Assembly (NCBI GenBank): GCA_048213135.1
Contig: PS015021.1
Span: 85,618-141,127 of the forward strand
DNA length: 55,510 nt
Direction: 5' to 3'
From: Reclinomonas americana ATCC 50394
Lineage: Eukaryota
Shown here: in pieces, positions 1 to 55,510 of the stretch
Layout: every line of letters starts with the position of its first letter
How positions within the stretch are numbered: the first letter of the stretch is position 1
Program-made: the position numbers and the translations under genes
Notes under the pieces: generated by a model
Databases searched by the model: none
Seen by the model: the letters and a program-made list of their open reading frames with translations, nothing else
Told to the model about the DNA's origin: nothing

Positions 1-320
1 ATTTTTGCACGTTCCGTTGCCCGAGCACGTCGTGCCGGCCACACAGTTCACATTGCACGATGCGCCATAAAAGTTGTTGTTGCACTGGCACGTACCGTCA
101 GTCTTGCACGTTCCGTTGCCAGAGCACGTGATGCTGGGACTGCAGTTGCAGCTGGCATTGGTGTAGTCGCCCGTGCACTGGCATGTACCGTCAGCCTTGC
201 ACGTTCCATTGCCAGAGCACGTGACGGTGGGACTGCAGTTGCAGCTGGCATTGGTGTAGTCGCCAGTGCACAGACAAGTGCCGTCAGTCTTGCATGTACC
301 GTGGCCAGAGCACGTGGTGG
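1..320 (-). repeat. Coding tandem repeat of about 90 bp (30 aa), about 3.5 copies, encoding EGF-like units
   Basis: The unit 'TCSGNGTCKxDGTCxCTGDYTNASCNC' recurs with near-identical DNA. Confidence 0.85.
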
Positions 321-2295
321 TCGGGTTACACGCAGGCACACACAGGCCAGAATCGCCGCAGCTACCAGAGCAGCAGTCTCCCCCACTGGAACATCCAGCA
401 CCAATCGCCGAACACCCGCACCGCGCCACGCCATACGCTTCAAAGCACTCACTACCCTCGGCACACTGGGCAATGATCTGGGTGGTGCCATAGGCACAGG
501 TCAGCACCGCACGTCGGTTCAGTGAGCACGTCGTGGTACCGTCGGGCAGCGAGCACACGCCGCAGTAGGAGCCGCTGTAGCCGGCAGGGCATGAGATCGG
601 TGCGCCTTGCGCCGCACGACCAATCGCCACCCACGTCACGTATTCAACGTCAGACGCGTCGGCCCCACTGGCACTGTACGCGATCGCCGTCACGTTGTCT
701 TCGTTGCCGAGGCGCTTGGTGGTGAACTGCAGCGACTGCAGATCGATGCGGTTCTGCACAACGACTGCCGTCGACTTCCACCCACGCAGGAACAGCTGCA
801 CGCTGATGGTGGCACGCAGTAGGCCATTCGGTGTCGACGCTGTCACCAGGCTGACTGTCTGAGTCGTCGTGCTGCTGGTGTGTGTTGTCTCTGCACCACG
901 CGCAACAGTCAGACAAAAGAGCGAACATCAAGGAAAAGGATGTGAACGCACCTCCCGACAGCATGACAAATCCGCTGTTGTTGGTGTTGTCGGGCCGCGT
1001 CGGTGCCACAGCAAAGCGTGCAGACACCGCATCCATGCGCGAGTCGCCGCTCACCGTGCCCTTCAGCGCGAAGCTGGAGCGCGAGGCTGAGCTGCTCGTC
1101 ACCGAAAAATTGTCGCCGCGCACGCGCCCATCGCTCCCCGTAGCCGACTGGCGCATCGACAACACACCGATGACGGCCACTGGAACGGCAGGCACCGACG
1201 CAAACTGATACGCAGACGAAACGCTTACCAACTGTGCTCAAGTGGAAGACAGAAAGTAAGTTTTTTTGAGGGGCAGGCGAAAGAGGCGAGGGCTCAAACA
1301 AAAACCACGCAACAGCAGAGCTGTTCTTGTTCACCGCATCCGACGACCACGCCTTGTTTGCCAACGTGCGCTGACCGTCCATCGACAGAGCATTCGTTTG
1401 ATGCACATAGTACGCCAGGTAGCCTGCATGCGGAGGGAAGACGATTAGCCACGCTTCTTTCCCATCGCACAGCTCCGGCGAACGCAACTCAGCGTGATGG
1501 TGGGCCCCTGCTGGCCGTCCGCCGACACGCCATAGCATCGAGTCGACAGCTGCGCCACGGTCACCACCGGCGCCGCACAGAATGCAAACGTGCCATCAGT
1601 CGGCTCGTTGGCCATAGTGGAAATGCTTTCGTTGGGCTGGCTGCCGACGCTGGTGAAGCCGAGCAACACGCGCGGGCGGCGGTAGAACTCGCGAGCGAAT
1701 GTGAACTGGATCGTGGTTGCCGTCACCGCCAGCGTCGACATGCTTGGCTTTGTGGTGGTATCGCCAGTGGTCAACGGAGTTGATGTGGGCGTCGGGTCAC
1801 TCGCACTGAGGCCACCGGCTGTCATGAACCCGGAGGTGAACGACTCCTCCGCCGACGCGTACGGTCCGTTGTTGGCCGCCACACACAGCTTGTAGGCACC
1901 GCCGCCACTCGACCCATTCGGTGTGATGGTCGCCCTGAAAAGGCGACAGCCAGTTGCCGACTCACACGATTCGGCGCCACTGCGCACAAACACCGCACCC
2001 ACACTGCCCGTCAGCGTCGAGTAGTCCGACAGTGTGGCGCAATCGACGCCTGCTGGCACCAGCTTGAAACTCGTGCAGTCGGTGAGGTTGTAGGCCGAGG
2101 AAGCAATCACAATCGAGTTGGCGCTGCCGTACTTGAGCACGGGCGGATTGGCAGAGGAAACCACCGGCGTCGACGAGGCGGCGGTGACGACGAGCGGGAC
2201 TTGCTGCAGGCGGTACACGGTGGTGCCGCCGGCCTGGAACCTGATGGTGCGGAAGGGTGAGCGAAGGCGAGGGGGAGGGAAAGGGAGAAATGCGA

Positions 2296-4753: not shown

Positions 4754-7700
4754 AGAGCGTGGAGAATTCGCTGAGTCGACCGGAGCTCGGCTTGCGGGTG
4801 ACGACAATGAATAATGCGACAGGGCGGCAAATGCTGCAGGCGGTCGACAACTTTTTGCGTGGTGTGGTCGACGGAGAGTTGGTGGTGTTTTACTATGCCG
4901 GGCATGCCTGCGTTGTTGCGTAATGTGTGGAGATATCAAGAACGAAACCTTTCTTCTCTTATCTTCTCACTCCCCCTCCTTTCTCTTCGCAGATCCGCCG
5001 CAACATTTTCCTGGTCCCCATCGATGCCGAAGTTGCGTGCACGCAAGCATTCTCATCCACCCCAGTCTGCATCCCTCTCATCCCCCACCATATGCAGGCC
5101 GGCACCGAGATTGCCATTCGCTCGGCGTGTGTGAGACTTGAGACCATCATGGACAAGATGTCTCAGGCGGCACCCAACAGCCCTGTCCTCATTTTCCTGG
5201 ACGCCTGCTACCCGAAGCCATTTACTTTCTTGCCAAAGAGGTTTGTTGGTTTCTCGCTCTCTTCCGTCTTTCCCCTCTGTTTTTCCCCCTTTCGCTCNNN
5301 NNNNNNNNNNNNNNNNNNNNNNNNNNNNNNNNNNNNNNNNNNNNNNNNNNNNNNNNNNNNNNNNNNNNNNNNNNNNNNNNNNNNNNNNNNNNNNNNNNNN
5401 NNNNNNNNNNNNNNNNNNNNNNNNNNNNNNNNNNNNNNNNNNNNNNNNNNNNNNNNNNNNNNNNNNNNNNNNNNNNNNNNNNNNNNNNNNNNNNNNNNNN
5501 NNNNNNNNNNNNNNNNNNNNNNNNNNNNNNNNNNNNNNNNNNNNNNNNNNNNNNNNNNNNNNNNNNNNNNNNNNNNNNNNNNNNNNNNNNNNNNNNNNNN
5601 NNNNNNNNNNNNNNNNNNNNNNNNNNNNNNNNNNNNNNNNNNNNNNNNNNNNNNNNNNNNNNNNNNNNNNNNNNNNNNNNNNNNNNNNNNNNNNNNNNNN
5701 NNNNNNNNNNNNNNNNNNNNNNNNNNNNNNNNNNNNNNNNNNNNNNNNNNNNNNNNNNNNNNNNNNNNNNNNNNNNNNNNNNNNNNNNNNNNNNNNNNNN
5801 NNNNNNNNNNNNNNNNNNNNNNNNNNNNNNNNNNNNNNNNNNNNNNNNNNNNNNNNNNNNNNNNNNNNNNNNNNNNNNNNNNNNNNNNNNNNNNNNNNNN
5901 NNNNNNNNNNNNNNNNNNNNNNNNNNNNNNNNNNNNNNNNNNNNNNNNNNNNNNNNNNCCGTCCTTCGCCTTCCTCCTTTTTCCTCTCCCCTTTCGCCTC
6001 CCCCCTTTCCTCTTCCCCCTTTACCCCCTTTCGCTTCCCCCTTACTCCTCTTCCCCCCCCCCTCCGCTTCTCCCCCCTCTCCCCCTCCCCCCTCTCCCCC
6101 TCACCTCACTCTTCCCCCTTTGCGCAGCGGCCTGGTCGCCGTGCGCTGCCCGCGCAACTACATGATCTCGTACGCGGCCGCTCCCGGCGACGAGATCCAC
6201 CGCATGGATCCCGCCGACCCGAGCATCTATTCCATGGCGCTCGCACGTCACTCTCTCGTGTCGTGCGAGCTGCCGGTCGACCGCATGATGCGCAACGTGG
6301 TCGACAACGTAATGGAGGAGTCGGACGGGCAGCAGATTCCGGTTCGTGCGATTCTTTCTTTCTCCGCATTGACAGGTTTCTTTCGCGCTCACCCTCGTCA
6401 CAGTGGGTGGTCTGCAACATTGCCGAGGATGTCAAGTTGAGATACGACGGCGTGCCGCTGCACACACAACGTGAGTCTTTTCTGTGCACAGCTTCTCTCC
6501 AGTCTTTGTTCCTCACTCTCCCCCCTTCTCGATCACAGCGGCACCACCACGCGAGCTGGAGCCGTGGGAGAAGCTGTACCGGTCGGCGGAGAAAATGTTT
6601 GACCGTGGCAGATATGACAAGGCCGCCGGCCTGTACACTGCCGTGCTCGAAATCCGCCCGCAACACGTGCCCTCGTTGGCACAACGCGCACAGATTCGCA
6701 ACTGGGAGACGTCATTTTCCGATGCGCTGAAGGTGCGGCACCCACTGTACCGAGCTTGCCTTATCGCCTTTCCTGTTCTCATGTCTTCGACAGGACTCGG
6801 AGTCCGCCATTGAGCTCGACGGCGACTGCTCCCTGGCGTGGGTGGCCAAGGGCACGGCACTGCGTGGCCTGGGACGACCCGAGTTACGCCGCGCCCTCAC
6901 ATTCATTCATTCGCCCTTTGTTGTCTGTCTCCCACTCACTCCCTTCCTCCGCCACCACCACCACCAGAGAATCGCTCTCGGCTTTTGATCGCGCACTCCT
7001 GCTCAATCCACGCCACGTCCTCGGTCTCAACTCGCGCGGCATGCTGCTGGCCGAGATGGGCCGGCCCGACGAAGCGCTGCAAGACTTTACGCGCGCCATC
7101 CAGACCGACGCCAAGTTTGTGGACTCGTTCAACAACCGCGCCGTGCTGCACCGCATCATGGGCAACACGGATCTGGCGCTGCAGGATTTCACTACGGCCA
7201 TCAATCTCGACCCGAAGCAGCCGATGCCTCACATTAATCGCGGTATGCTGCACCGTCAGCTCGGCAGGGACGACGAGGCCATGGAGGACTTCGACGCGGC
7301 GGTGGAGGCCGACCCGAAGTGTGCCGATGCCTACAATTGCCGCGGCACGCTGTTTGAGGCGCAGGGCATGCATCAGGAGGCGCTGGCCGATTTCTCCAAC
7401 TGCATCACCCTCAACCCGCGTCACGCTCACGCCTACAACAATCGCGGCAACGTGCACGACAACATGGGCTCACTCGACATGGCGCTGCTCGACTACACGC
7501 GGGCCATTGATCTGGACGGAACGTGCCCGGCGTTCTACAGAAATCGCGGCGATTTGCGTGTGCGAATGGGCGAGAAGCGCAAGGCGGCGCGTGATTTCAA
7601 GGTGTGTGGCGAGAGAGAAGGAGAGAATGATTGGAAGAGGGTTGCTCACATTTTTCTGCACCACACAGCGCGCGGAGATTTTGGAGCGCTCGGACGACCC

Positions 7701-8445
7701 CGATGCCACCTCGCAAGACGAAGACGTGGTGCACGAGAGCGACGTGACGGTCGACGTGAGCAACTCGAGCAACACGAGTGCCAGCTCGATGCTGACGGCA
7801 CCGCGCGGCTCGAGCAGCAGCGGCAGTCGGGGAAGCGTGTCACCACGCCGACCACGCGTGCTCGAGACGAGTGTGCTGATTGAGAACAAGCGCGCACCTT
7901 CGAACGGCAGCGGTGATCGCACGCCACGGCGACGCGCCGAGCACAGTCCGCGACGCGCGTACGGCTCCGATGACGAGTCGCAGAGCGAGGAGAGCTCGGC
8001 ACCGCGACAGCGCTCCCTGCCGACGCTGCACTCGCCGAACGGCAAGAGCAGCAGCTCCCCGAAGAGTGCTCCGTCGCCGGCCAACAACGTGGCCGCTCGC
8101 ATCGAGGCCGCACGTCTCGAAGAGGAGCGCCAGAATCGCGCACGGCAGCAACAGCAGCAGCAGCAGCAGCAAGCACGTCCGCGAACGGCAGACGGGCCAC
8201 CGATGCCGTTTAATCTCGGTAGCCGCCAAGGCTCGCGCGCGACCTCCCCGATGGGACCCGTTGCGGCGGCCTTCTCCGCCAGCAACTCGCGCATGTCGTC
8301 GCCTCTGCCGGCGCAGGGCTCGTTCAAGACGAGCAGCAGCATGAATGGTGGTGGCATGCCGCGTCCGGCCAGTGGGCCAGTGGGCAGCAGCGCACAGCCG
8401 ACGCCCACAGCATCGGCCAGCAACACTCCTCGGCGGCACCGATAG
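4754..8445 (+). CDS. Caspase-like (peptidase C14) domain plus about 9-10 TPR repeats and a Ser/Gln-rich disordered tail; 5' end not resolved
   Basis: The spliced frame gives VVFYYAGHA (His, about 4891-4908), IFLVPIDA, LIFLDACY (Cys, about 5200-5210) and MISYAAAPG...QQIPW, then TPRs with repeated 'NNRG/A...ALxDF..AI.L.P' (6540-7600). Stop TAG ends at 8445. Confidence 0.85.
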
Positions 8446-24578: not shown

Positions 24579-29404
<4,826 letters not shown>

Positions 29405-35534: not shown

Positions 35535-36809
35535 TCACCACCGGCACCACGGCTCGCGCCACAACAGCGCACGAGCCTCCTCCAGCACACAACACCGCAG
35601 CACCACATCCACCAAGTACCATTCGCAATCGCCGTCACCACCACTGACTTCGGCCGTCGCCATTGCCTGCTGCACAGCGTCCACCGCACTCTCCGCACTC
35701 GCCACCTCTCGCTGCGCCAAGCCGCGCGGCGTGTACAACAGGCTGGCGTATCCGTCGACCCAGCCGCCGACGACATTTGCGTCGTCGGGAAGCAGTGCCA
35801 GACTCGAGCAGCGCACTTGGAAGCCACCCGCCGCCGGCGACGTGTGACTGTACAGGAGCGCGCCACTGGCCAGCGACCAGAAATGCACAAAGCCATCGTG
35901 GCCGGCGCTCACCACGCACCGCGAGTCGCCCGTCACCTCCACTCCGGTCACCGACTTGGACGGGCACACCGTCTCACACCACAGTTGCTCGCCAGTGCGC
36001 CACGACCACGCTCGCACCGAGCCATCGCTGCCGCCAGCGACAATGTACTCGCCGTCGGGCGACACGGCCAGCGACACGGCAGCCAATCGAGCAGCACCGG
36101 CATCGCCTGGCATGCTCAGTCGACGCACGCGCGCACCGTCATCTTCACCATCGACGCACGTGCACACAATGTGCACACGGTTGAACTCCTCCGCAGCCTC
36201 CCCGCCCGACACCACCACGCGACGGCCATCGGGAGCAACCGCAATGGCGAACACACACGTCAGCTGCGCATCGACGCACGCCACCAGCTCCCCACTCGCT
36301 GCACACCACACGCGCACATGACCATCACTGCAGCCGACCGCCACCCGCGAGCCACCTCCCGGCACCACCGCCACCGCGGCCAGCGAGTACATCTCATTCG
36401 GCGGCATGATCTCATGCAGCGGGTCAACACGCTGCGTGCCACTCTCCATCAGTCGCTGCATCGCCCACACGCGCAGCACATTCGAGTCGCTGTGCACGAC
36501 GCTCCACCCGCTCAGCATCACCACGAAGCGCCCATCCGACGTGAACACCGCCCGCTTTGCAAACCACACCGCATCGCCGTCAGCTGTGTGCGTCGGTGTC
36601 GGGTACAACACACGTGGCATCGACTCGTCACCGCGCAGCGACCACAGACGCACACCCCAGTCGGTCTCCCAGCCGCACGAGAGCAGGAAGAGACCATTTG
36701 GCGACACCGACACCGACGACACTGGCACGCCGTGGTGGAAGACGCGAGGTGGAGCGGCGGGCGCAGGCGTTGCGGGCTGTGCAGGTTGTTGACTGCTCTT
36801 TGCGCCCAT
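35535..36809 (-). CDS. WD40-repeat protein, possibly N-myristoylated (MGAKSS)
   Basis: 424-aa ORF with repeats 'SVSPNG...VRLWS', 'SDGHVRVW', 'SPDGEYIVAGGSDGSVRAW' and 'SAGHDGFVHFWS'. Confidence 0.9.
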   Translation of the reverse strand: MGAKSSQQPAQPATPAPAAPPRVFHHGVPVSSVSVSPNGLFLLSCGWETDWGVRLWSLRGDESMPRVLYPTPTHTADGDAVWFAKRAVFTSDGRFVVMLSGWSVVHSDSNVLRVWAMQRLMESGTQRVDPLHEIMPPNEMYSLAAVAVVPGGGSRVAVGCSDGHVRVWCAASGELVACVDAQLTCVFAIAVAPDGRRVVVSGGEAAEEFNRVHIVCTCVDGEDDGARVRRLSMPGDAGAARLAAVSLAVSPDGEYIVAGGSDGSVRAWSWRTGEQLWCETVCPSKSVTGVEVTGDSRCVVSAGHDGFVHFWSLASGALLYSHTSPAAGGFQVRCSSLALLPDDANVVGGWVDGYASLLYTPRGLAQREVASAESAVDAVQQAMATAEVSGGDGDCEWYLVDVVLRCCVLEEARALLWREPWCRW

Positions 36810-37525
36810 GAAAATGTGTTGCAGGCGGACAGCTGGTCCCGAGTTCGAGCATCAAAGACAAGGTGGAGGAGGAGAAGTGGGTACTAGGCTGGGCAGAGGT
36901 CGGTAGCTCTTCGACTGCGACACGCGGTAATACGCAGCGCGCGAACGCGTGATCTCGAGGATCCGAATCCGGATCCGGAAACAACAAAACACTTCATTCA
37001 CCACATTCCAATAATGCGACAAATGTCCACAAATCGTGAAGTTGGTCATGGACATGAAGCAAGACAACACCTTCAAGCTGTGGCCGCACACACGGTATAA
37101 GAGTAAGAGGCATTGGTGCGGACACTGCAGGAAGTGCTCTTCGACGCGGGTTGGTGATCACTTGCAAATGGCGCGAAGTGAAATCGATATCCGGATCCTG
37201 TTTTACACGAACGTAGACGACACCACACCGACAAGGTGGTGGCGGCATGCAAGACAGAGGAGAAGCGTGCAAGAGAGCAAGCACTGCAGGGTACGGCTCT
37301 TCGATGTACATGTGCAATTGCAATGGACTTGGAGCGATGTTCGGATCCTGTTTGCACTGGCTTAGATGATGCAGGCCAGCCGCTGTCACATGCAAGGTAG
37401 AGGACAAGTAGGCGCGACAGCGGGCCCTGCAGCGCGACACGTAATATGCAGCAGACACTTGGCGCGAAAACGTCGTCGGTCCTGTATGTTACACTCGCAA
37501 TCAAAATCAGTGTCGAGGAGGAGCA

Positions 37526-39175: not shown

Positions 39176-39938
39176 GAGAGTGGTGAGAAGACGCTGTGGA
39201 CAACATGGGTGCGCTGGGAGAGAGGTTCAAAAGTGCAAGACTGAGAACAAGAAAGCGACAGCCACACATTCAGAGATATGGGGAAGCAGAGAGGAGATGA
39301 GAAGTGAACAAGTAAGAGGAGCAAACAAGAGCAGCGACTGGATGACAAAGATGAGCCAAGAGAAAAGAGAACAAAAGAAAAGAAAAGGGAGTGACGTTCA
39401 GAGCTCTCCGTGAGAGATCACAGTGGTGAGTGACAAACCGCTCACCCTTCCTCCCCTCATCACAGGTCGTGCTGTACCCTGAGCGCGAGGGTCTCGAGGC
39501 CATGCTGAAGAGGTTCTTTGTCGAGCACTGTTGCGTCTCCCTCTCCCACTCTCTCCCTCTTCAATCACCGTCGTCTCACCCTACATGCAGACCACGAGGA
39601 CGAGGAGATCCGCTTCATTCTCGACGGCACAGGCGCCTTTGACATTCGCGACACCGCCGACAAGTGGGTGCGCATCGAGGTGTCGGTGGGCGACATGATT
39701 GTGATTGTTGCGTGGCACACCGTGTCTTCTTCTTCTTCACCACCGTTACCACGGCAGCAGCTAACAGTGTTGTTGGTGTGCGCAGCCGGCTGGCGCCTTC
39801 CACCGCTTCACGCTGCTCGACAGCCGCAATGTGCACGCGATGCGTCTGTTCAAGGATGCGCCCAAGTGGGAGGCCATTCCGCGGCACCCTGGCTCGCCGC
39901 CACCACCTGCCTTTGTCGCCGATTGCAAGGCGAACTGA
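37526..39938 (+). CDS. ADI1: Acireductone dioxygenase (methionine salvage)
   Basis: Four visible exons give '[11 protein letters not shown]...REYKNRDE...[26 protein letters not shown]...[14 protein letters not shown]...AMRLF...PKW' with intact metal ligands. Confidence 0.95.
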
Positions 39939-40052
39939 CACAATGGGAGGGCGATGGCTTCGTGAATCTCTCGAATGAATGCGAGGAGAAGGTCTGGCGA
40001 GGAGCTGCTGTCGGATGTCTTCTTCACAGTTGTACATTTCGGGTGGTCTCGC

Positions 40053-41855
40053 TCACACCGCCGGATTCCTCGACTTGGGGAAGACACCCCGCAAGCGCAG
40101 CTTCTTCGCCAACAGCGGCAGCGCCTCGTCTAACCGCGCGTAGATGCGCACAGCACACTGATCGTCGTACTGTGTGCGTTGCAGGTTGATAATGACGAGG
40201 CCTTGTCCGACGCCGTCGGCGTGTCGTTCGGCGGGTGTTGTGGCGATGCGGTCTGCGTGCGTGCGTGTGCGAGGTGAGTGAAAGAAGGGGGAAAGGAAAA
40301 AAAGGGGGGGGACGTCTTGCTCACCAGCGCCCATGCCGCACAGTGACGTGCCGAGAGCCAGGCACATGTCGCACCGCTCCTCCCACTCGGACAGCCACTC
40401 GTGCAGATGCGGCTCCACGTCCTCGTCCATGAACTTGACGCGGTTCTTGCGGTCGAACCAGCTGCCGTGGATCTCGTTGAGCTTCTCCTGGGGGTAGCCG
40501 GCCTGCAGAAGGAGAAGGAGGTGAGCAAAAGGAGGGAATGTATGAGAAGGAGGGAAAAAGGAGAAAAGGAAGCAGCAGCAGCGGAGGGGAAGAAGCAGCA
40601 GGAGGAGGAGGAGCAGCAGCAGAAGTGGCAGACTGACGGAGGAGAGAGTGTGATTGAGAAATGTAGTGAGCAAAGTGGAAAAACAGCATGCCGGAAAGAA
40701 GGACAGAGTGATGGAAAATGAAGAGAGCCCGAAGAAGAACAGAAAAACTGCAGTGAAGAAGAGGAGGGGAGGAGGGACACGATAACAGAGTACGCTGCGA
40801 GGCTACCGGGAAAGAAAGCGGGAGAGAGAGAGAGAAAGAGAGAGGGAGAGAGAGACACAGAGAGTGGAAGAATTGGATGTGATGAAGAAGCAGTCTGACA
40901 GAGTTGGCTGAAAAGGCAGTTGTAAAGAAGAGGAAGAAAGGAGGAGGATGAGGCAGAAGAGGACATCCGAGCGATGATGTAGGCCGGTGGAGTGGGGTAA
41001 ACTGAGAGCAGGGAGGTGACGAAATAGAGGAAACGAGGAGGAGGATGCGGAGAACAACTGCAGAGCGATGACAGATGAGGAGAGTGAGTTGAACGACATG
41101 CACCTTTTGCGCCAGTCCGTCGTGGTTCTGCTGCACCCAGTGCTGTGACATTCGAGGGGTTTAGTCGCACAACCAACTAGCTTCTCGCAGATTACTGACC
41201 CCGCCGCACCTGCAGATACCCAGCGCGTTCCATCGCCGCCAGCACCTGCATTGACAAGTCAGTCTCCAAATCATCATCACCACCATCGCCGCCGCCTCAT
41301 CAATCGCAACATAGTGGGACTTGGTCGGCTGCGCCTTTAGTCGATTGACGCTGGTCTCGCGACCGGCCACCGATCCCTGCGACACGAGACGAAGTGAGCA
41401 CGTCTGGCACCGATCATTGCCACCGATCAATCGATATCGCACGCAACTGGGGCCACACTGGCGTAATCGCCCAAGCCCGCGGAGGTGGAGATGCCGGCTC
41501 CCGTGTACACCACCAGATTCTCCGACTGCGCGACAAGGGAGAGGTAAGTTGACACGAAAGGAGAGCGTTGCCGGATGAGTGACAACACCTTGCGGATCAT
41601 GTCGGCCACCAACTCCAGCTTCGCATCCAACACGTCATCCTCATCGGCGTACTCGGTGGCATCGCGCGAGTTGTATCCTGGTCTCGCCAAGCGATCCGTG
41701 GCAGCCACCACGCGAGGGGCACGCCATGCGTCCGGATCGATTTCTGGCACGTTCCGCCCGTGCATCTCCACCCATGTCGCGTCGAGTCGCCGTACTTGTC
41801 GAGGTGCGCGTCGTGCGGGTCCTCCAGCAGCAGCAGCAGCGGAGGAAGAAGCCAT
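40053..41855 (-). CDS. Sirtuin (Sir2 family, SIRT6/7-like motifs) lacking the zinc-binding module
   Basis: Seven exons give '[13 protein letters not shown]', 'PTKSH', 'QQNHDGL', 'EIHG', 'LGTSL' and 'IINLQRT'. Confidence 0.9.
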
Positions 41856-46081: not shown

Positions 46082-48428
46082 TCACTTCTTCTGCCTTCGA
46101 CTCCTCCTCATCGGCACTCCGCCGAGCAATGGCGGTGGCGGTGGCGGCGGTAGCGGCGGCGCCGGTGCCGCTGCACCCTTCTTCCCCTTCTTCCCTCCTC
46201 TGTTGTCGCCCATTGCCGCGGCCGCCACCACCGCCGCCGCACCGTGCATCATGGCGACAGCTGCAGCGGGTGCCGCCGGCGCCGCCGCAGGTGCAGCAGC
46301 CGGCCGGCCCGACGGACCCTCATTCTCGGCCGGCGATTCCACCGGATGCAGTGATCTGCACAGCGAGCATCCGAGCGGCACTGGCACACCACGCGAGCCG
46401 TTTGGTGGATGCGCTATCCGCAGCGGGCAGGTGGCCGGACCCTTGCACACGGGTATCTTCTTGCCCCAACCGGTAATGTCGGGCCGCCGCACGTGGCAAT
46501 CGTCACAATAGTGCGTGGTACCGAAGCAGAAAAACGTGGCCAGTTTGCAGCAAAAGTTGCACTTGAAGGCGCTGCCACCAATCCCAAATAAGAAACGCAA
46601 AGGAGAGCGACTTTCACCACCACCACCACGCAACACATGATCACGTCCGTGCACGGGGCAATTGTCGGAGTGTGACAAACAGTCGAGGCACACAAGAGGG
46701 ATCTTCTCCAACTCGTCCGCCGCCGCCGCATCCACGCACTCTCGCTCACCACCATAGTACGGGGTCTGTGTGACAACAACACACACACGCCGTGCAATGA
46801 GCACCTGCTCTCAATGTCCTTCCCTTCTCCGCAAACACCCCCACACACCTTGCACTTCTCACACATGTAGTAATTGTAGCGATAGGTGGCCATCCGGGCG
46901 AGATCGCCGCCGTACTTGGTTGCCAGATCCTCGCTCTGGTCCATCTTCTCCTCGCGTGCTCGCTTCACCGCCATGGCGAACACCTGGTCGCGCAGCTGCA
47001 TATGCGGTCGCATGACCTCCTCGAGGCTCGGGTGCGAGAGGAGGCGCTTGCACAGCGGACAGTTCATGTACGCAAACGTAATCTCGCGCGCCGGCCACCT
47101 CTTCTTGAGCATCTCGCGAATGCAGTGCATGTGGAAGTAGTGATTGCAGGCGAGCTTGATGACGGGGGCCTGTCCGAGTGGCTCCGTGAAGCAAATGTTG
47201 CAGAGGGAGTCGGCGGACTGCACACGTTGGTGAGCAGAGCAATGGTCAGGAACGTATATGTGCAGGGGAGCGCTACTCACCACCCCGTCGACATCCTCGT
47301 TCGCACAGTGCAGGCACTGAAGGCACGGAAACTCGCCGTCGACTCCACCACACGGATGCCCGCAGCGATGCATGCGTTTGCAGCTCTCCCGCGCACGCTG
47401 CGTGCAGCAGGAGTTGTGACACACGTTGCCGCGTAATGCCGGCGTGTTGACAAAGTCCTGGCACATGTGCACCACATCCGGCAACTCGTCTCCACAAAAG
47501 CGACACACGCCGTGCTCCGGCACAGCTGGAGGTGGCGGCGGCGGAGCCGGTGGCGTCTGTCGCTTCGATTTCGTCGGCTCAAAGTAATAATCGCTCGTCA
47601 AATCCACCACGGCGTCGTCCAGCGACGACACCGCGACTTGTGCCGCACGTGGTGGAGGCGGTGGTGGCGGCGGAGGGGAGCGCACCACGACGATTCCGTC
47701 GTCGTCCAGCACGATAATGTCGGGCGAGTCCCTGCGTGCCGGCCGCTGTCGTTTGACAGGCGGCGGTGCGACAACGTCGTCCAGCTCCAGCGTCAGGTCC
47801 ACAACGTCGGCGTCGGCCTGCGCAAGAAAGAAAGAGGGGAAGAGGGTGAGAATATATAAAGAGCACAGGACATACTTGCGAGTGGTGATCATCACCTTTT
47901 CCGCCTTTCCACGGCCCATCACACCATCGTCGTCCTCGAATGCTCTCTTGCGGCTCTCACGTTGCCGGCCATCCACTTCCATCACGCCTCCATTCGGGGG
48001 CGGCGGCGGAGGAGGAGCAGCGACGGCGCGCGAGGGAGGCAGAGGCGCTGGGCGGAATGCCGGTTGCGGTTTCTGCTGCTGCTGCTGTTGTTTTTGTTGC
48101 TTTTGTTGCTGCTCTTCCTCCTCGACCAGCTCGATGATGGCCAGTGGGTCGAGGCGGCGGGGGGCCACGGCGGCTGCGGGGGGAGTGCGCCAGAGAAGGG
48201 AAGAGTGGGGAAGAATGGGGAGAGAATAATTAGAGAAGCGTTTGCGAGGATTGCGAGAAGAGAGACGGGGGAGCGCGGGAGATAATGAGCGACGAAGGGG
48301 AGTTGAGAAGGAAGAGACAAGAGCAAGGAGAAAAGCACTCACACACAGAGAGTGACTCAAGTCACCGCATATGCTGTGTAAGAGCCACGCGGACTTCACA
48401 AGGCTCCAAACACGAGACAACACAGACA

Positions 48429-48474
<46 letters not shown>

Positions 48475-49175
48475 GAGAGTACAGTAAGAGAGGTCTCAAC
48501 ATGCGTGCGTGAGAGAGTGCGCGAATGTAAGAGGAATGCGCGCGGAAATAAGGAGGAACGCACACAATAGACGCGCGTTCTCTCTGACACACACACACAC
48601 ACACAACTCTCTCTCTCTCTCTCCTCGCTGTACTACACGTACGTACGTCTCTCTCTCTCTGCTCTCNNNNNNNNNNNNNNNNNNNNNNNNNNNNNNNNNN
48701 NNNNNNNNNNNNNNNNNNNNNNNNNNNNNNNNNNNNNNNNNNNNNNNNNNNNNNNNNNNNNNNNNNNNNNNNNNNNNNNNNNNNNNNNNNNNNNNNNNNN
48801 NNNNNNNNNNNNNNNNNNNNNNNNNNNNNNNNNNNNNNNNNNNNNNNNNNNNNNNNNNNNNNNNNNNNNNNNNNNNNNNNNNNNNNNNNNNNNNNNNNNN
48901 NNNNNNNNNNNNNNNNNNNNNNNNNNNNNNNNNNNNNNNNNNNNNNNNNNNNNNNNNNNNNNNNNNNNNNNNNNNNNNNNNNNNNNNNNNNNNNNNNNNN
49001 NNNNNNNNNNNNNNNNNNNNNNNNNNNNNNNNNNNNNNNNNNNNNNNNNNNNNNNNNNNGAGTCGTACACTACGTGCGTGGAGAGAGCGCGACGAGTAGA
49101 GAGAGAGCGCGGACGAAGTAAGGAACGACGACACACATACGACGCGTCGTCTCTCTACACACACACACACACACA

Positions 49176-49652: not shown

Positions 49653-52600
49653 TCACGGCGATCCTCGATTCGGCGCCACTCCCATGCGCTGCAACAAATC
49701 ACGCGCCGTCCTCGCCGACGTCTGCGTCACCGACGGGAGTGCCAGTACCTGTTTGCAGGCCACCGAAGCCGCCTCGATGTCGTTTTTGGCGTGCAGAATG
49801 CGAGCCCTGTGCGTATGCAGTAAATAAACAACTTTGCTCCATCGCTTCTTCGCACACGCAACTTGCACAACAATGCCCGATCGTCCGGCGCCGCCAACTC
49901 CGCCGCCGTGCGCAGCGACTCCAGCGCCTCATTCAGCGCGTCCGACTGCAACAGATGCTCGGCCTGGTTGATCAGCCACTCGGCGCGATTCACCTTTTGC
50001 AGCGCCTGGCTCAGAATCTCAAAATCGGCACGAATGCCATCGTGGTGCGGAGCCAGTTGCACGGCGCGCTCATAGTCGGCGAAGGCTGCGAGTGACCGGT
50101 GAGTACACGGGTGAGTGGACGATGGAATGACATCACGACGCTCACCTTCTCGAACCATGCCACGGGCGGCGTAGATGCTGCCGCGCCGCGCCAACGTGTG
50201 TAATCTCACGCTGGCAAACTGCGCGACGAGACGGGACTCACGGAGGCCATCGAGGCGCTCCAGTACCGAATTGCAGTCCTGCAGCGCATCTGCCGGCCGA
50301 TCAATGGCCATCCACGCAGCGGAGCGGTTCGACAGCAGTGTGATCCGATCCAGGTCTTCTGCGGCGTCACGCGCCGGTTTGTGCAACAGTGCCGAGTACA
50401 TGTCGATGGCACCGCGATAATCGCGCCGGTGGAACAACTGATTCGCTCGCTCCTTGGTCGGCGCCGCACCTGCGCACATTGCTCTTGAGTGAACGTGTGT
50501 TATTTTTCAAGAGCGGCATGTGCGTTGCACGTAACCTTCTTCTTCCTGCTCGCCAATCGCCTTCAACACCGCATCCAGATCCTTCCTCAGGTTCTCGTCG
50601 GGGTCGCCGAGGTGGCACGCGCGTTCCAGGTCGGCAGCGGCTGTGAGGTGGTGAAGGAAAAGGATGAATGCCATGTGCGAGAGAGAGAGGTACAAGAAAA
50701 CAGACTTACCCTCGCGCAACAGGCCAAGATGAATGCGCGCAGCACCACGCCGCGCATGCAGCTTCTGCAGACCGCGCTGCAGCAGACGACGAGCTTCAAT
50801 CGGATCCTCGTGAGCCTGGCGGGAAAGATAGGAAAAATGAGCAGAAAAACACAGACAAGCAATTGCGTATACGTCGTGCGCACCGGAGGCGCCTCGGCAA
50901 GAATGTCCAGTGCCTTCGTGCAGTCATCGATGCACTTGGCAAAGTCGCCCATCTTCAGGTAGCAGGCGGCGCGATTGCTGTATACGGAAGACCATTTCTC
51001 GCACTGCAGTGACGACGTGTAGGCTTGCACGGCGGACTCCATGTCACCACGAGCAAAGAACGAATCACCGCGGTTCTTGAGCCATTGCGCTGAAAGGAAT
51101 AAAATGTGAGAGACGGACATAACGGCGACAGGCGAGAGACTACCACGGCACACCGTTGGTTTCCTGCGACATGGCCTCCTTTCGCACGGCCTCGTCTTCA
51201 CTGAGGGGGCGGAGTACGGGATCTGCGCACGCAAGTCAGAAAGACAAGAAGCGCCAAGGAGCAGCAAGGAGGAGACGTAACTCTCGCGCCCTTCACGGGC
51301 AGGAATGACGGCAGCGTGCGGGGAAAACTTGATCTTGATGGTGTTGTGGGAGCGCGCAGGGGGGAGAGTGCGGTTGGCGGGGACGGCGGAGCGCGTTTCT
51401 TGCTTCTGTGGACGACAAGTAAGAAAAAGAGAAAAGCGGGCAGATAGGGGAAGGGGAGAAAGGGGGAGAAGGGGGAGAAAGGGGGAGAAAGGAGGAGAAA
51501 GGGGAGGAAGGGGAGGAAGGGGGAGAAGCTGGAGAGAGGGAATAGAGCGGAATGAGGATAAGAAAAGAAATGGGGAGAAAGGGGAGAAGGAAGAAATGAT
51601 GAAGACCAGGAACAACAGAATGATATTCACTGCACGCAAAATGCAGGCAACAGAAAGTGGACGCTCAGCGCCATCCAAAAAAACCATACTGCCGACAGAG
51701 GTGAGGCAGAAACCACCATGGAGAAGACACAAGAGCGCGAGAGAGAAGCAGGAGAGCGTCACAGCATATCGATAGCATTCTTCTGCACAACCGTTGCGAT
51801 GCACGAATCCGCCGTGCTCCCATCTCCTTCACATTCTCTCTCTCTCTCTCTCTTTCTTTCTCTCTCTTTCCCCCCAACTCACCGTCGGCGGCGCAGCTCC
51901 ACCCCAAATGTCCTTGTTGGCGAGACTCGCCTGCAGCACCGCCTTTGTGAACTCATCATCGTCGTCAGAATCGTCGCCATCATCGTTGCTGTCGGGTGCC
52001 GCATCGCGACGGCTTTGACTGTCGCCTGCATAATCACCCTCATCGCCCTCGTCAATGTCCTCGGCTGTGCGGCGCAGAATGAGAGATTGCTGAGAAAACA
52101 GGACTCCATTCTCCGCTTCGTACCCCACTCGGTGGCGCCGGCCGCTTGTCGCGGTTTGAACACGTCAGCCTGTTTCACGAGGTGAGAAACAGTGGGCAAT
52201 GTAATGCATGACTAGACGCCACCAACTCAACGAGTGCTCTCTGCTTCTCCTGCTCGCGCAACGACTCGGCCTCCGCCCGCTTGCGCTTCTCCAGATCCCA
52301 GTTCTTGTTGAACGCATCCTGCTCGGCCTTGGCCTTGAGCTCCAGTCGCAGCAGTCGTTTCTGAACAGAGAAGGGCGCTCAGCGTGCCATGTGCGCACAT
52401 AAACAAGAACATGATGTCATGCACCTGCTCCTCTCGCTGCACGACCTCTTGCATGGAGGCATCGCGAATGGCAATGAGCTCGTCCTTGCTGCCACGGACG
52501 GCAAACGCCTCAGCACCCCACATGCCCGGTTGTTCCTGAGAAGAAGAAGAAGAAGAAGAAGAAGAAGAAGAAGAAGAAGAAGAAGACGAGAGAGAGAGAT

Positions 52601-54591: not shown

Positions 54592-55510
54592 TCACGGCGG
54601 CGGCAACAAGCACTGCAGGCTCTTGAAAATGGTGCACTGGCCAGAAGAGGTGAGGCACGCCGCCACGATGCGCGAGTCGTCGCTGCTGTCGACAGTGTAC
54701 CACCTGGCGCTGTTGCCAGTTGCGTACCAGGTGACGCCACCGTCGGCGGAGACGTAGATATCTCTGGTCGAAGGCGCAAAGAAGCGCACATCGCTGTACA
54801 CCACAGTCCCAATGTTGGCGCTGTCCGGGTTGAATGAGCTCGGCGTCCACGTCACACCACTGTCGGTCGAGACGGTGATGGCGGCGTTGTTTGTGTAGTC
54901 CAACGCCAGCAGGCGACTGCCGTCAGCGCCACCGTCAAGCGACAGGATAACGTTGTTGGAGATCTTGGTCCACGTCGCCCCGGCATCGGTCGTCGTGTAG
55001 AAGCCACCGTCGGTGCCGGTCAAGATCTTCGTGCCATCGGCTGACACAAAAATGACTTCGGCGTACTGGGAATCCGGGCGATCGACAGTGGACCAAGTGG
55101 CGCCGCTGTCGGCACTCACGGTGATAGCACCGGTGCCGAAAAGCACACCAATCACCGATCCGTTACCGCTCACTGCGATCTGCCGCGGCGAGTCAGATCC
55201 TCCAGCGTTGTAGCTGGCCAGGGTCCATGTGGCACCACCGTCAGTGGAGATGTAGGTGCCGACGCTGGCTTGCTGCCCGCTAGCCACCAGCAGCATCGAC
55301 CCGTCGTTGCTGACAACTGGCGAATTGAAGGACACAGGAGCATTGACAACCGTCGAGGCCGTCCATGTGGCGCCGGCGTCGGCGCTGACATAAACATTGA
55401 CGTCGTCAGCGTACAGCATGGTCTGCCCGCTGCCGCTGACCGCGATGGTCGCACCTCCTCCAAATGCATTCGCTCCAGCCGGAGAGACGTTGGTCACGAG
55501 GCAAGTGGCC
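54592..55510 (-). CDS. Asp-box (BNR) repeat beta-propeller protein, 5' partial
   Basis: Six SxDxGxTW motifs (SADAGATW, STDGGATW, SADSGATW, TTDAGATW, STDSGVTW, SADGGVTW). Confidence 0.85.
   Translation of the reverse strand, partial: ATCLVTNVSPAGANAFGGGATIAVSGSGQTMLYADDVNVYVSADAGATWTASTVVNAPVSFNSPVVSNDGSMLLVASGQQASVGTYISTDGGATWTLASYNAGGSDSPRQIAVSGNGSVIGVLFGTGAITVSADSGATWSTVDRPDSQYAEVIFVSADGTKILTGTDGGFYTTTDAGATWTKISNNVILSLDGGADGSRLLALDYTNNAAITVSTDSGVTWTPSSFNPDSANIGTVVYSDVRFFAPSTRDIYVSADGGVTWYATGNSARWYTVDSSDDSRIVAACLTSSGQCTIFKSLQCLLPPP

Follow-up and report, generated by a model that had tools for sequence, protein, structure and literature searches.

A 55,510-nucleotide stretch of the Reclinomonas americana ATCC 50394 genome (contig PS015021.1, positions 85,618 to 141,127; hereafter the window) carries, at 46082-48174 on the minus strand, a gene for a compact protein that combines a RING-Cys-relay (RCR) catalytic module with a disordered N-terminal array of motifs resembling the SUMO-interacting motifs (SIMs) of RNF4. 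Judged by homology, the catalytic module is almost certainly a true RCR module and the protein a member of the RCR family. We tentatively read the whole as a compact RCR E3 targeted by an RNF4-like SIM array, that is, as a candidate SUMO-targeted ubiquitin ligase (STUbL) with a transthiolating catalytic part, to which we give slightly less than an even chance. STUbLs are a functional class that includes RNF4, Slx5-Slx8 and RNF111.

Reading of the DNA combined with scripted assembly revealed a eukaryotic gene split into five or more exons, the four introns found being short and of GT-AG type. A 693-codon open frame on the minus strand (46414-48495) overlaps a second frame (46082-46810), and reading continues without a stop from 48174 through the RING. 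The predicted product comprises 601 residues when counted from the CAG acceptor at 48174 and 537 residues from the first in-frame ATG; it consists of a disordered N-terminus, a Cys-rich zinc region, a RING-H2 domain and a tandem-cysteine (TC) domain. The upper limit given in the original prediction, 48173, is the base after the CAG acceptor. From 5' to 3', the gene contains the following parts:

48174-48176, minus strand: CAG acceptor, after a long pyrimidine tract and preceding exon A
47896..48174, minus strand: visible part of exon A, Q/P/A-rich and disordered, with SIM-like motif 1 and the first in-frame ATG
47980..47982, minus strand: first in-frame ATG (MEVDG...), the minimal start of the 537-residue product
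47818..47895, minus strand: intron 1, 78 nt, in frame, GTGATG...pyrimidine tract...CAG
47281..47817, minus strand: exon B, holding SIM-like motifs 2-4, a stretch resembling a nuclear localization signal (NLS) and the zinc region together
47305..47514, minus strand: Cys-rich zinc region (CRFC ... CGHPCGG ... CLQCLHC), common to the compact RCR family
47218..47280, minus strand: intron 2, 63 nt, in frame, GTGAGT...CAG
46849..47217, minus strand: exon C, RING-H2 (about 47047-47202) and RCR linker helices
46766..46848, minus strand: intron 3, 83 nt, frameshifting, GTGTGT...CACAG
46340..46765, minus strand: TC domain, exons D and E, matching 5o6c/6t7f
46572..46634, minus strand: probable intron 4, 63 nt, in frame, GTTGCG...GGCAG; a 21-residue loop if retained
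46082..46339, minus strand: C-terminal tail, Ala/Pro-rich and disordered, with a basic end (GGKKGKKG, RRSRRQKK)
46082-46084, minus strand: stop codon TGA

This gene structure is supported by homology. Aligned to a profile derived from 33 compact relatives, the spliced model matched as a single domain without interruption (370 bits; hidden Markov model (HMM) positions 246-573 of 589, model residues 196-515), the alignment starting in the zinc region at HMM position 246. The frame stays intact whether intron 1 is spliced or retained, and with intron 2 removed the alignment to the family profile has just a two-residue gap in that stretch. Because intron 3 shifts the frame, the TC domain can be translated only after splicing, which links YYMCEKCK to TPYYGGEREC, colinear with MYCBP2 (5o6c chain positions 133 and 136, with two residues between). 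Intron 4 coincides with the sole long gap (21 residues) in the MYCBP2 alignment and has a codon score of -0.29 per codon, and an insertion at this site is found in just one of the other 98 sequences of the alignment. None of the six plus-strand open reading frames (ORFs) overlapping the locus had a Pfam match. Alternative forms of intron 4 of 65, 73 or 75 nt were rejected, as they broke the frame or deleted the conserved FKC. The single relative with an insertion at 46572-46634, P0002, carries one of similar length, which may be an intron, conserved in position, that was left unspliced in a metagenomic gene call. Sequencing runs sought as RNA evidence for the junctions and the 5' end yielded three runs, all DNA-type and from one study, with shares of at most 0.17.

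The combination could in principle be an artefact of the gene model or a pseudogene, with the SIM region lying in a 5' untranslated region or another transcript, or with a real frameshift between RING and TC that leaves the TC domain untranslated. In favour of this, motif 1 has no start codon ahead of it, the draft assembly leaves 11 N-gaps in the window, and the donor of intron 4 (GTTGCG) is weak. However, the first ATG precedes motifs 2-4, which are encoded in exon B together with the conserved zinc region, so that their link to the ligase is independent of splicing. All four introns are GT-AG and 63-83 nt long, their removal yields the single 370-bit match, and the strongly conserved Cys/His columns are all retained. 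We therefore consider an artefact highly improbable, and the earlier claim that a SIM-like array and a RING/TC module belong to one gene is upheld.

At the 5' end of the gene, no in-frame ATG occurs further up the open frame than 47980-47982, and reading by eye of 48175-48560 gave no convincing ATG-bearing 5' exon. The codon log-odds of 47983-48174 amounted to +18.1 bits in frame 0 (0.28 per codon), compared with 0.33 per codon in the SIM part of exon B and -0.06 in the CT tract at 48175-48495; the codon model is crude and its training ORFs are few and partly unverified. This coding-like score suggests a further 5' exon, which may be located inside the assembly gap at 48667-49059. Its position is limited by the next gene upstream on the same strand, a TPR gene reaching down to about 49730. 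A possible in-phase start, an ATG near 48502 with a GTGTGT donor, lacks support and would call for an intron of ~300 nt. A long pyrimidine tract together with (GA)n/(GT)n microsatellites lies just upstream of the 48174 acceptor (48175-48500), and similar tracts are found beside other ORFs.

The assignment of the catalytic module rests on both of its halves. In the four exons, RING families were the only above-threshold Pfam hits (zf-RING_2 at 3.1e-07 for the RING-H2). Compared with PDB sequences using phmmer, the exon with RING and linker matched MYCBP2 (5o6c, chain 5-133, E 9e-28), and the match ended at the exon boundary; the TC exon matched 5o6c/6t7f (chain 136-261, E 6e-14), while Pfam gave no match for this exon. 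The motifs of the relay were located as follows:

46736-46759, minus strand: upstream relay Cys motif YYGGEREC, its Cys aligned to chain position 143
46688..46705, minus strand: KIPLVC, with Pro at the triad Glu column of the TC alignment
46511-46534, minus strand: downstream Cys motif FFCFGTTH, aligned to MYCBP2
46493-46507, minus strand: catalytic His in CDDCH, aligned to MYCBP2

We aligned the TC domain of the model with those of 98 of 151 relatives, namely the ones that carry the upstream motif followed by 110 or more residues (99 sequences in total). Both relay Cys columns were invariant (99/99 each) and the His column nearly so (98/99), with all three residues present in the model, which also has Cys or His at all strongly conserved Cys/His columns, taken as zinc ligands. 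The predicted RING and tandem-Cys domain with both relay-Cys motifs is thereby confirmed. For MYCBP2 we take the upstream Cys to be C4520, a number that also occurs in papers on this protein, the downstream Cys and His to be C4572 and H4583, and the triad Glu to be E4534; the start of the 5o6c construct, and hence the mapping of chain index to residue, is likewise our assumption. An AlphaFold2 model of the unspliced TC region reached a mean predicted local distance difference test (pLDDT) score of 61.6 and was confident for residues about 64-136 only. When this partial model was compared with the PDB by Foldseek, 6t7f (7.7e-05) and 5o6c (1.1e-04) were found, the next match having E >6. Based on the conserved residues, the protein is probably relay-competent.

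The N-terminal segment before the zinc region comprises 194 residues and is rich in P, Q, A, D and E. The four SIM-like motifs with acidic flanks and the NLS-like PPPVKRQR that had been predicted were all found, on the minus strand, and a fifth motif (IVVV) was added:

48112..48138, minus strand: SIM-like motif 1, IIELVEEEE, whose core IELV equals RNF4 SIM1
47776..47805, minus strand: SIM-like motif 2, VVDLTLELDD, whose core equals RNF4 SIM3
47743..47766, minus strand: NLS-like basic stretch PPPVKRQR, assigned from sequence alone
47683..47718, minus strand: SIM-like motif 3, IIVLDDD (47698-47718) followed by IVVV (47683-47694), the latter preceded by DDDG
47590..47610, minus strand: SIM-like motif 4, VVDLTSD, differing from motif 2 at three synonymous codon positions

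The motif array is non-random. With a SIM-like motif defined as a hydrophobic core with at least three acidic residues in core and flanks, five motifs were counted in 194 residues, compared with 0.43 +/- 0.62 in composition-preserving shuffles, and none of 10,000 shuffles reached five. Two copies of [VI][VI]D[VIL]T are present, a number reached in 0 of 100,000 shuffles. The density of SIM-like motifs is 2.6 per 100 residues, in contrast to 0.13 in 157 relatives. At three positions the two VVDLT copies use different, synonymous codons, which points to constraint on the peptide rather than to a recent duplication of the DNA. According to the available portion of PMC4083429, the SIMs of RNF4 are IELV (SIM1), IVDLT (SIM2), VVDLT (SIM3) and VVIV (SIM4), SIM2 and SIM3 are dominant, and acidic residues of the linkers are important. 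The cores found here match these SIMs, in line with the STUbL type named in the original prediction. It is marginally probable that the candidate SIMs bind SUMO. From PPPVKRQR and the basic C-terminus we infer a nuclear location of the protein.

An exhaustive search with the TC exon identified 587 cluster representatives at E <=0.001 and 117 at <=1e-10, and many of the RCR-matching representatives are 500-800 residues long. Close orthologues were absent from the collections searched, with no match at E <=1e-30 in the exhaustive search. A word-indexed search gave one hit (34% identity), and a profile search added 11 new relatives. In total, 168 relatives were examined, 150 of the 587 cluster representatives and 18 others. 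Among the compact ones are KAK3269813.1 (Cymbomonas, hypothetical), CAI5999912.1 (Closterium) and MES1909680.1 (Cercozoa metagenome-assembled genome, hypothetical); the Atlas clusters nearest to the TC domain are ciliate-rich, followed by "MYCBP2-like" animal clusters. These matches indicate that the RCR cassette is a widespread portable module outside animals. Many compact RCR matches are present in databases and compactness alone is therefore not new, so that this part of the claimed novelty falls: RCR modules are not confined to giant proteins. Pfam analysis of 28 longer relatives identified IBR in nine, C2 in five, ubiquitin-like domains in three, PH in one, B-box in one, and nothing in five. 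The R. americana protein has its disordered SIM-like segment where relatives have IBR, C2, ubiquitin-like or PH modules. In six relatives (P0009, P0027, P0047, P0259, P0263 and P0266) a ubiquitin-like domain, C2 and sometimes PH precede the zinc region, RING and TC domain, and this sub-group would represent a membrane- or lipid-directed RCR architecture.

The SIM array was absent from the other 168 relatives. In 157 of them, the maximum number of loose motifs per 200 residues was 0 in 101, 1 in 39, 2 in 13 and 3 in 4, and in the four relatives with three loose motifs these lie in surroundings that are Cys-rich or look folded. Of 151 relatives, 6 have a single copy of the strict five-residue motif, and 11 further ones have none. 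Single SIM-like motifs in disordered tails were found in the following relatives:

P0013: N-terminal VIDIT, then LSDSEED
P0110/P0157 (Closterium): VIDLT, then ADSDGSDG
P0010 (Cymbomonas): VLDLT
P0111: C-terminal VVVIDLLDDD after an Ala/Pro tail like that of the R. americana protein
P0126: VIDLS

The strict motif with an acidic/Ser flank was found four times in 167 relatives, compared with 0.47 +/- 0.69 in shuffles, of which 1 in 300 reached four; one of these four hits lies in a folded-looking context, and local composition is not preserved by the shuffles. Among the 101 proteins of the TPR control the same pattern was found twice, compared with 0.8 in shuffles, of which 58 of 300 reached two. 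The enrichment of flanked SIM-like motifs in relatives is only a hint. The C-terminal tail of the R. americana protein (46085-46339, minus strand) resembles that of P0111, the former ending in a basic run and the latter in the SIM-like motif.

In the literature searched, neither a SIM-RCR fusion nor compact RCR proteins were found described, although evolutionary remarks in primary RCR papers or their supplements may have escaped. In the available portions of reviews (including PMC9527308), the giant neuronal protein MYCBP2 is the only RCR enzyme named. The statement that a SIM+RCR architecture was not known to be described thus stands for the other 168 relatives and for this literature.

Several observations weigh against a SUMO-targeted RCR ligase. 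The assignment of the SIMs is one of resemblance, and short hydrophobic-acidic motifs are common in disordered regions. Shuffling the whole protein ignores local composition, so that the significance of the array is overstated. The first in-frame ATG comes only after SIM-like motif 1, whose translation is therefore uncertain and hangs on a 5' exon further up. The raw motif occurs 8 times in 78,709 residues of relatives compared with 17 times in 114,512 residues of the TPR control, a TPR-biased set in which the hits sit inside TPR repeats. In the structural model of the TC region, the first 63 residues, including 21 that are intron-encoded, have pLDDT <50. Further points concern the second catalytic site, where the column of the triad Glu contains E in 56, D in 20, Q in 6 and other residues in 17 of the 99 sequences, the R. 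americana protein being the only one with Pro; a second strongly conserved Glu (83/99) is likewise Pro in this protein.

One rival explanation is that the protein is an RCR ligase whose hydrophobic-acidic motifs do not bind SUMO. They could instead be beta-strand 'stickers' for a substrate adaptor, for another ubiquitin-like protein or for self-association or condensation, or simply fast-evolving disorder. Consistent with this, none of the 157 relatives, and none of the 11 further ones, has four or more motifs in any 200-residue span; among the proteins examined the array occurs in the R. americana protein only, and conservation of the SIM array therefore cannot be shown. The N-terminal modules of relatives are diverse (IBR, C2, ubiquitin-like, PH, B-box), as in a variable targeting region, and the raw motif is not more frequent in relatives than in the TPR control. 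On the other hand, the cores are identical to RNF4 SIMs mapped experimentally (as given in the available part of PMC4083429), the motifs are strongly clustered relative to shuffles, their acidic flanks are those expected of SIMs, and both VVDLT copies have been kept despite the synonymous differences. Taken together, motifs without SUMO binding seem somewhat unlikely.

As to the chemistry, at the positions of the MYCBP2 pocket residues, which we take to be F4573, F4578 and F4586, the R. americana protein has F, Y and R; the column of the presumed F4586 is occupied by diverse residues in the family (Q 39, P 15, A 11 of 99). The replacement of Glu by Pro together with Arg at one pocket position makes esterification of Thr/Ser doubtful. 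In the original prediction of ester-linked ubiquitin, the retention of both relay-Cys motifs holds; the loss of the triad Glu speaks against the esters, and we consider ester chemistry by this protein rather improbable. The relay or esterification site might even have degenerated through the loss of Glu, leaving an ordinary RING E3, possibly SUMO-targeted, or an enzyme that transfers to Lys or Cys. The Pro residues at both Glu columns and the Arg and Tyr at two of the presumed pocket positions fit such a loss. The aligned columns point the other way: both Cys, the His, the GG loop and the conserved Cys/His columns are intact, unlike in a decaying domain, E, D and Q are all missing from the Glu column in 17 of the 99 family sequences, and the variable column at the presumed F4586 suggests that pocket residues may be refinements specific to MYCBP2. 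Degeneration of the site is accordingly viewed as quite unlikely, even though the second site of MYCBP2 is described, in the available portion of PMC9527308, as a Cys-His-Glu triad with a hydrophobic pocket for the Thr methyl group.

Compared with the RCR module of MYCBP2/PHR1/Highwire/RPM-1 (PDB 5o6c, 6t7f), the R. americana sequence is colinear from the RING-H2 through the linker helices to the TC domain (chain positions 5-261 of 263), and both relay Cys, the catalytic His, the GG-containing mediator-loop motif and CFGTTH are kept. MYCBP2 differs in size (about 4.6 thousand residues compared with about 0.6 thousand), and the R. americana protein has a disordered SIM-like array as its N-terminus, Pro instead of the triad Glu, and Tyr and Arg instead of the presumed F4578 and F4586. 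In the R. americana protein the zinc region, common to its protist relatives, directly precedes the RING. The layout of PHR proteins (giant, with RCC1-like, PHR and Fbxo45-binding regions) was not found in this protein of 537-601 residues, in whose four exons Pfam detected RING families only. With the compact zinc region-RING-TC proteins of protists and green algae it shares the core (the 370-bit profile match) and a similar size, but it matches none of positions 1-245 of the A1 family profile, and the cluster of 4-5 SIM-like motifs and the Pro at the Glu column are found in this protein alone. An RBR arrangement was not supported, as no IBR hit was obtained in the four exons at E <=1.

Like RNF4, the R. 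americana protein carries a disordered N-terminal array of SIM-like motifs whose cores are the same (IELV, [IV]VDLT and a run of V/I), and both have a stretch of basic residues and end in a RING-type catalytic part. At the level of sequence only, it thus has the multiple SIMs in disorder that are typical of STUbL E3s. While RNF4 has a dimeric RING that activates E2~Ub directly, the R. americana protein has an RCR module, predicted to act by transthiolation via two Cys, and the spacing of its motifs is wider (8-29 residues and more). No specific similarity to the RNF4 RING was found, as RNF4 is absent from the six PDB sequences with E <=0.01 to the RING exon (MYCBP2 (two), RLIM (two), synoviolin and RNF38).

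If the protein is a SUMO-targeted RCR E3, the SIM array would dock the enzyme onto SUMO or poly-SUMO conjugates and the RING would bind E2~Ub. Ubiquitin would then pass to the loop Cys of YYGGEREC and on to the second Cys in FFCFGTTH, from which it would be transferred to the SUMOylated target or to SUMO itself. The fullest version, a true SUMO-targeted RCR ligase that reads poly-SUMO and writes non-lysine (ester or thioester-derived) ubiquitin on SUMO conjugates, is unlikely on present evidence.

The window as a whole has a GC content of about 0.45-0.62 outside the 2-kb windows that hold N-gaps, abundant (CT)n, (GA)n and (GT)n tracts, and its 11 N-gaps are 20-896 bases long. The RCR gene fits a GC-rich eukaryote with short introns, probably a protist or alga; a trypanosomatid origin, to which the CT/GT/GA-rich intergenic DNA had pointed, was rejected, as reading of the TC domain requires the 83-nt frameshifting intron. 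Pfam analysis of 129 ORFs of the window yielded generic eukaryotic domains only, and Rfam gave no match in the window. The neighbouring TPR ORF, used as a query, had 23-40% identity to generic TPR proteins only, most of them unnamed or from bacteria. Apart from the RCR gene, the following features were recognized by Pfam domains:

1-927, minus strand: teneurin-type EGF repeats
6618-7880, plus strand: TPR-repeat gene
24897-27992, minus strand: CNG/HCN-type channel-like gene interrupted by introns and a 20-N gap, with domains for ion transport (1e-19) and cyclic-nucleotide binding (1e-12)
35538-36851, minus strand: WD40 propeller
39509-40186, plus strand: acireductone dioxygenase (ARD) fragment
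49730-51828, minus strand: TPR-repeat gene, directly upstream of the RCR gene
54595-55509, minus strand: sortilin/Vps10 BNR-repeat fragment

With an obvious targeting module, a small RCR enzyme of soluble size would be a tractable system for studying the relay. It belongs to several hundred compact RCR proteins, with IBR, C2, ubiquitin-like, PH and B-box modules, that appear to be undescribed in the literature searched. If the SIMs work, the R. americana protein would be the first STUbL with a catalytic part other than a plain RING, and SUMO signalling would be linked to transthiolating, possibly non-lysine, ubiquitylation. Should it be a true SUMO-targeted RCR ligase, the single SIM-like motifs of green-algal and other relatives would mark an old and recurrent coupling of SUMO and RCR outside animals.

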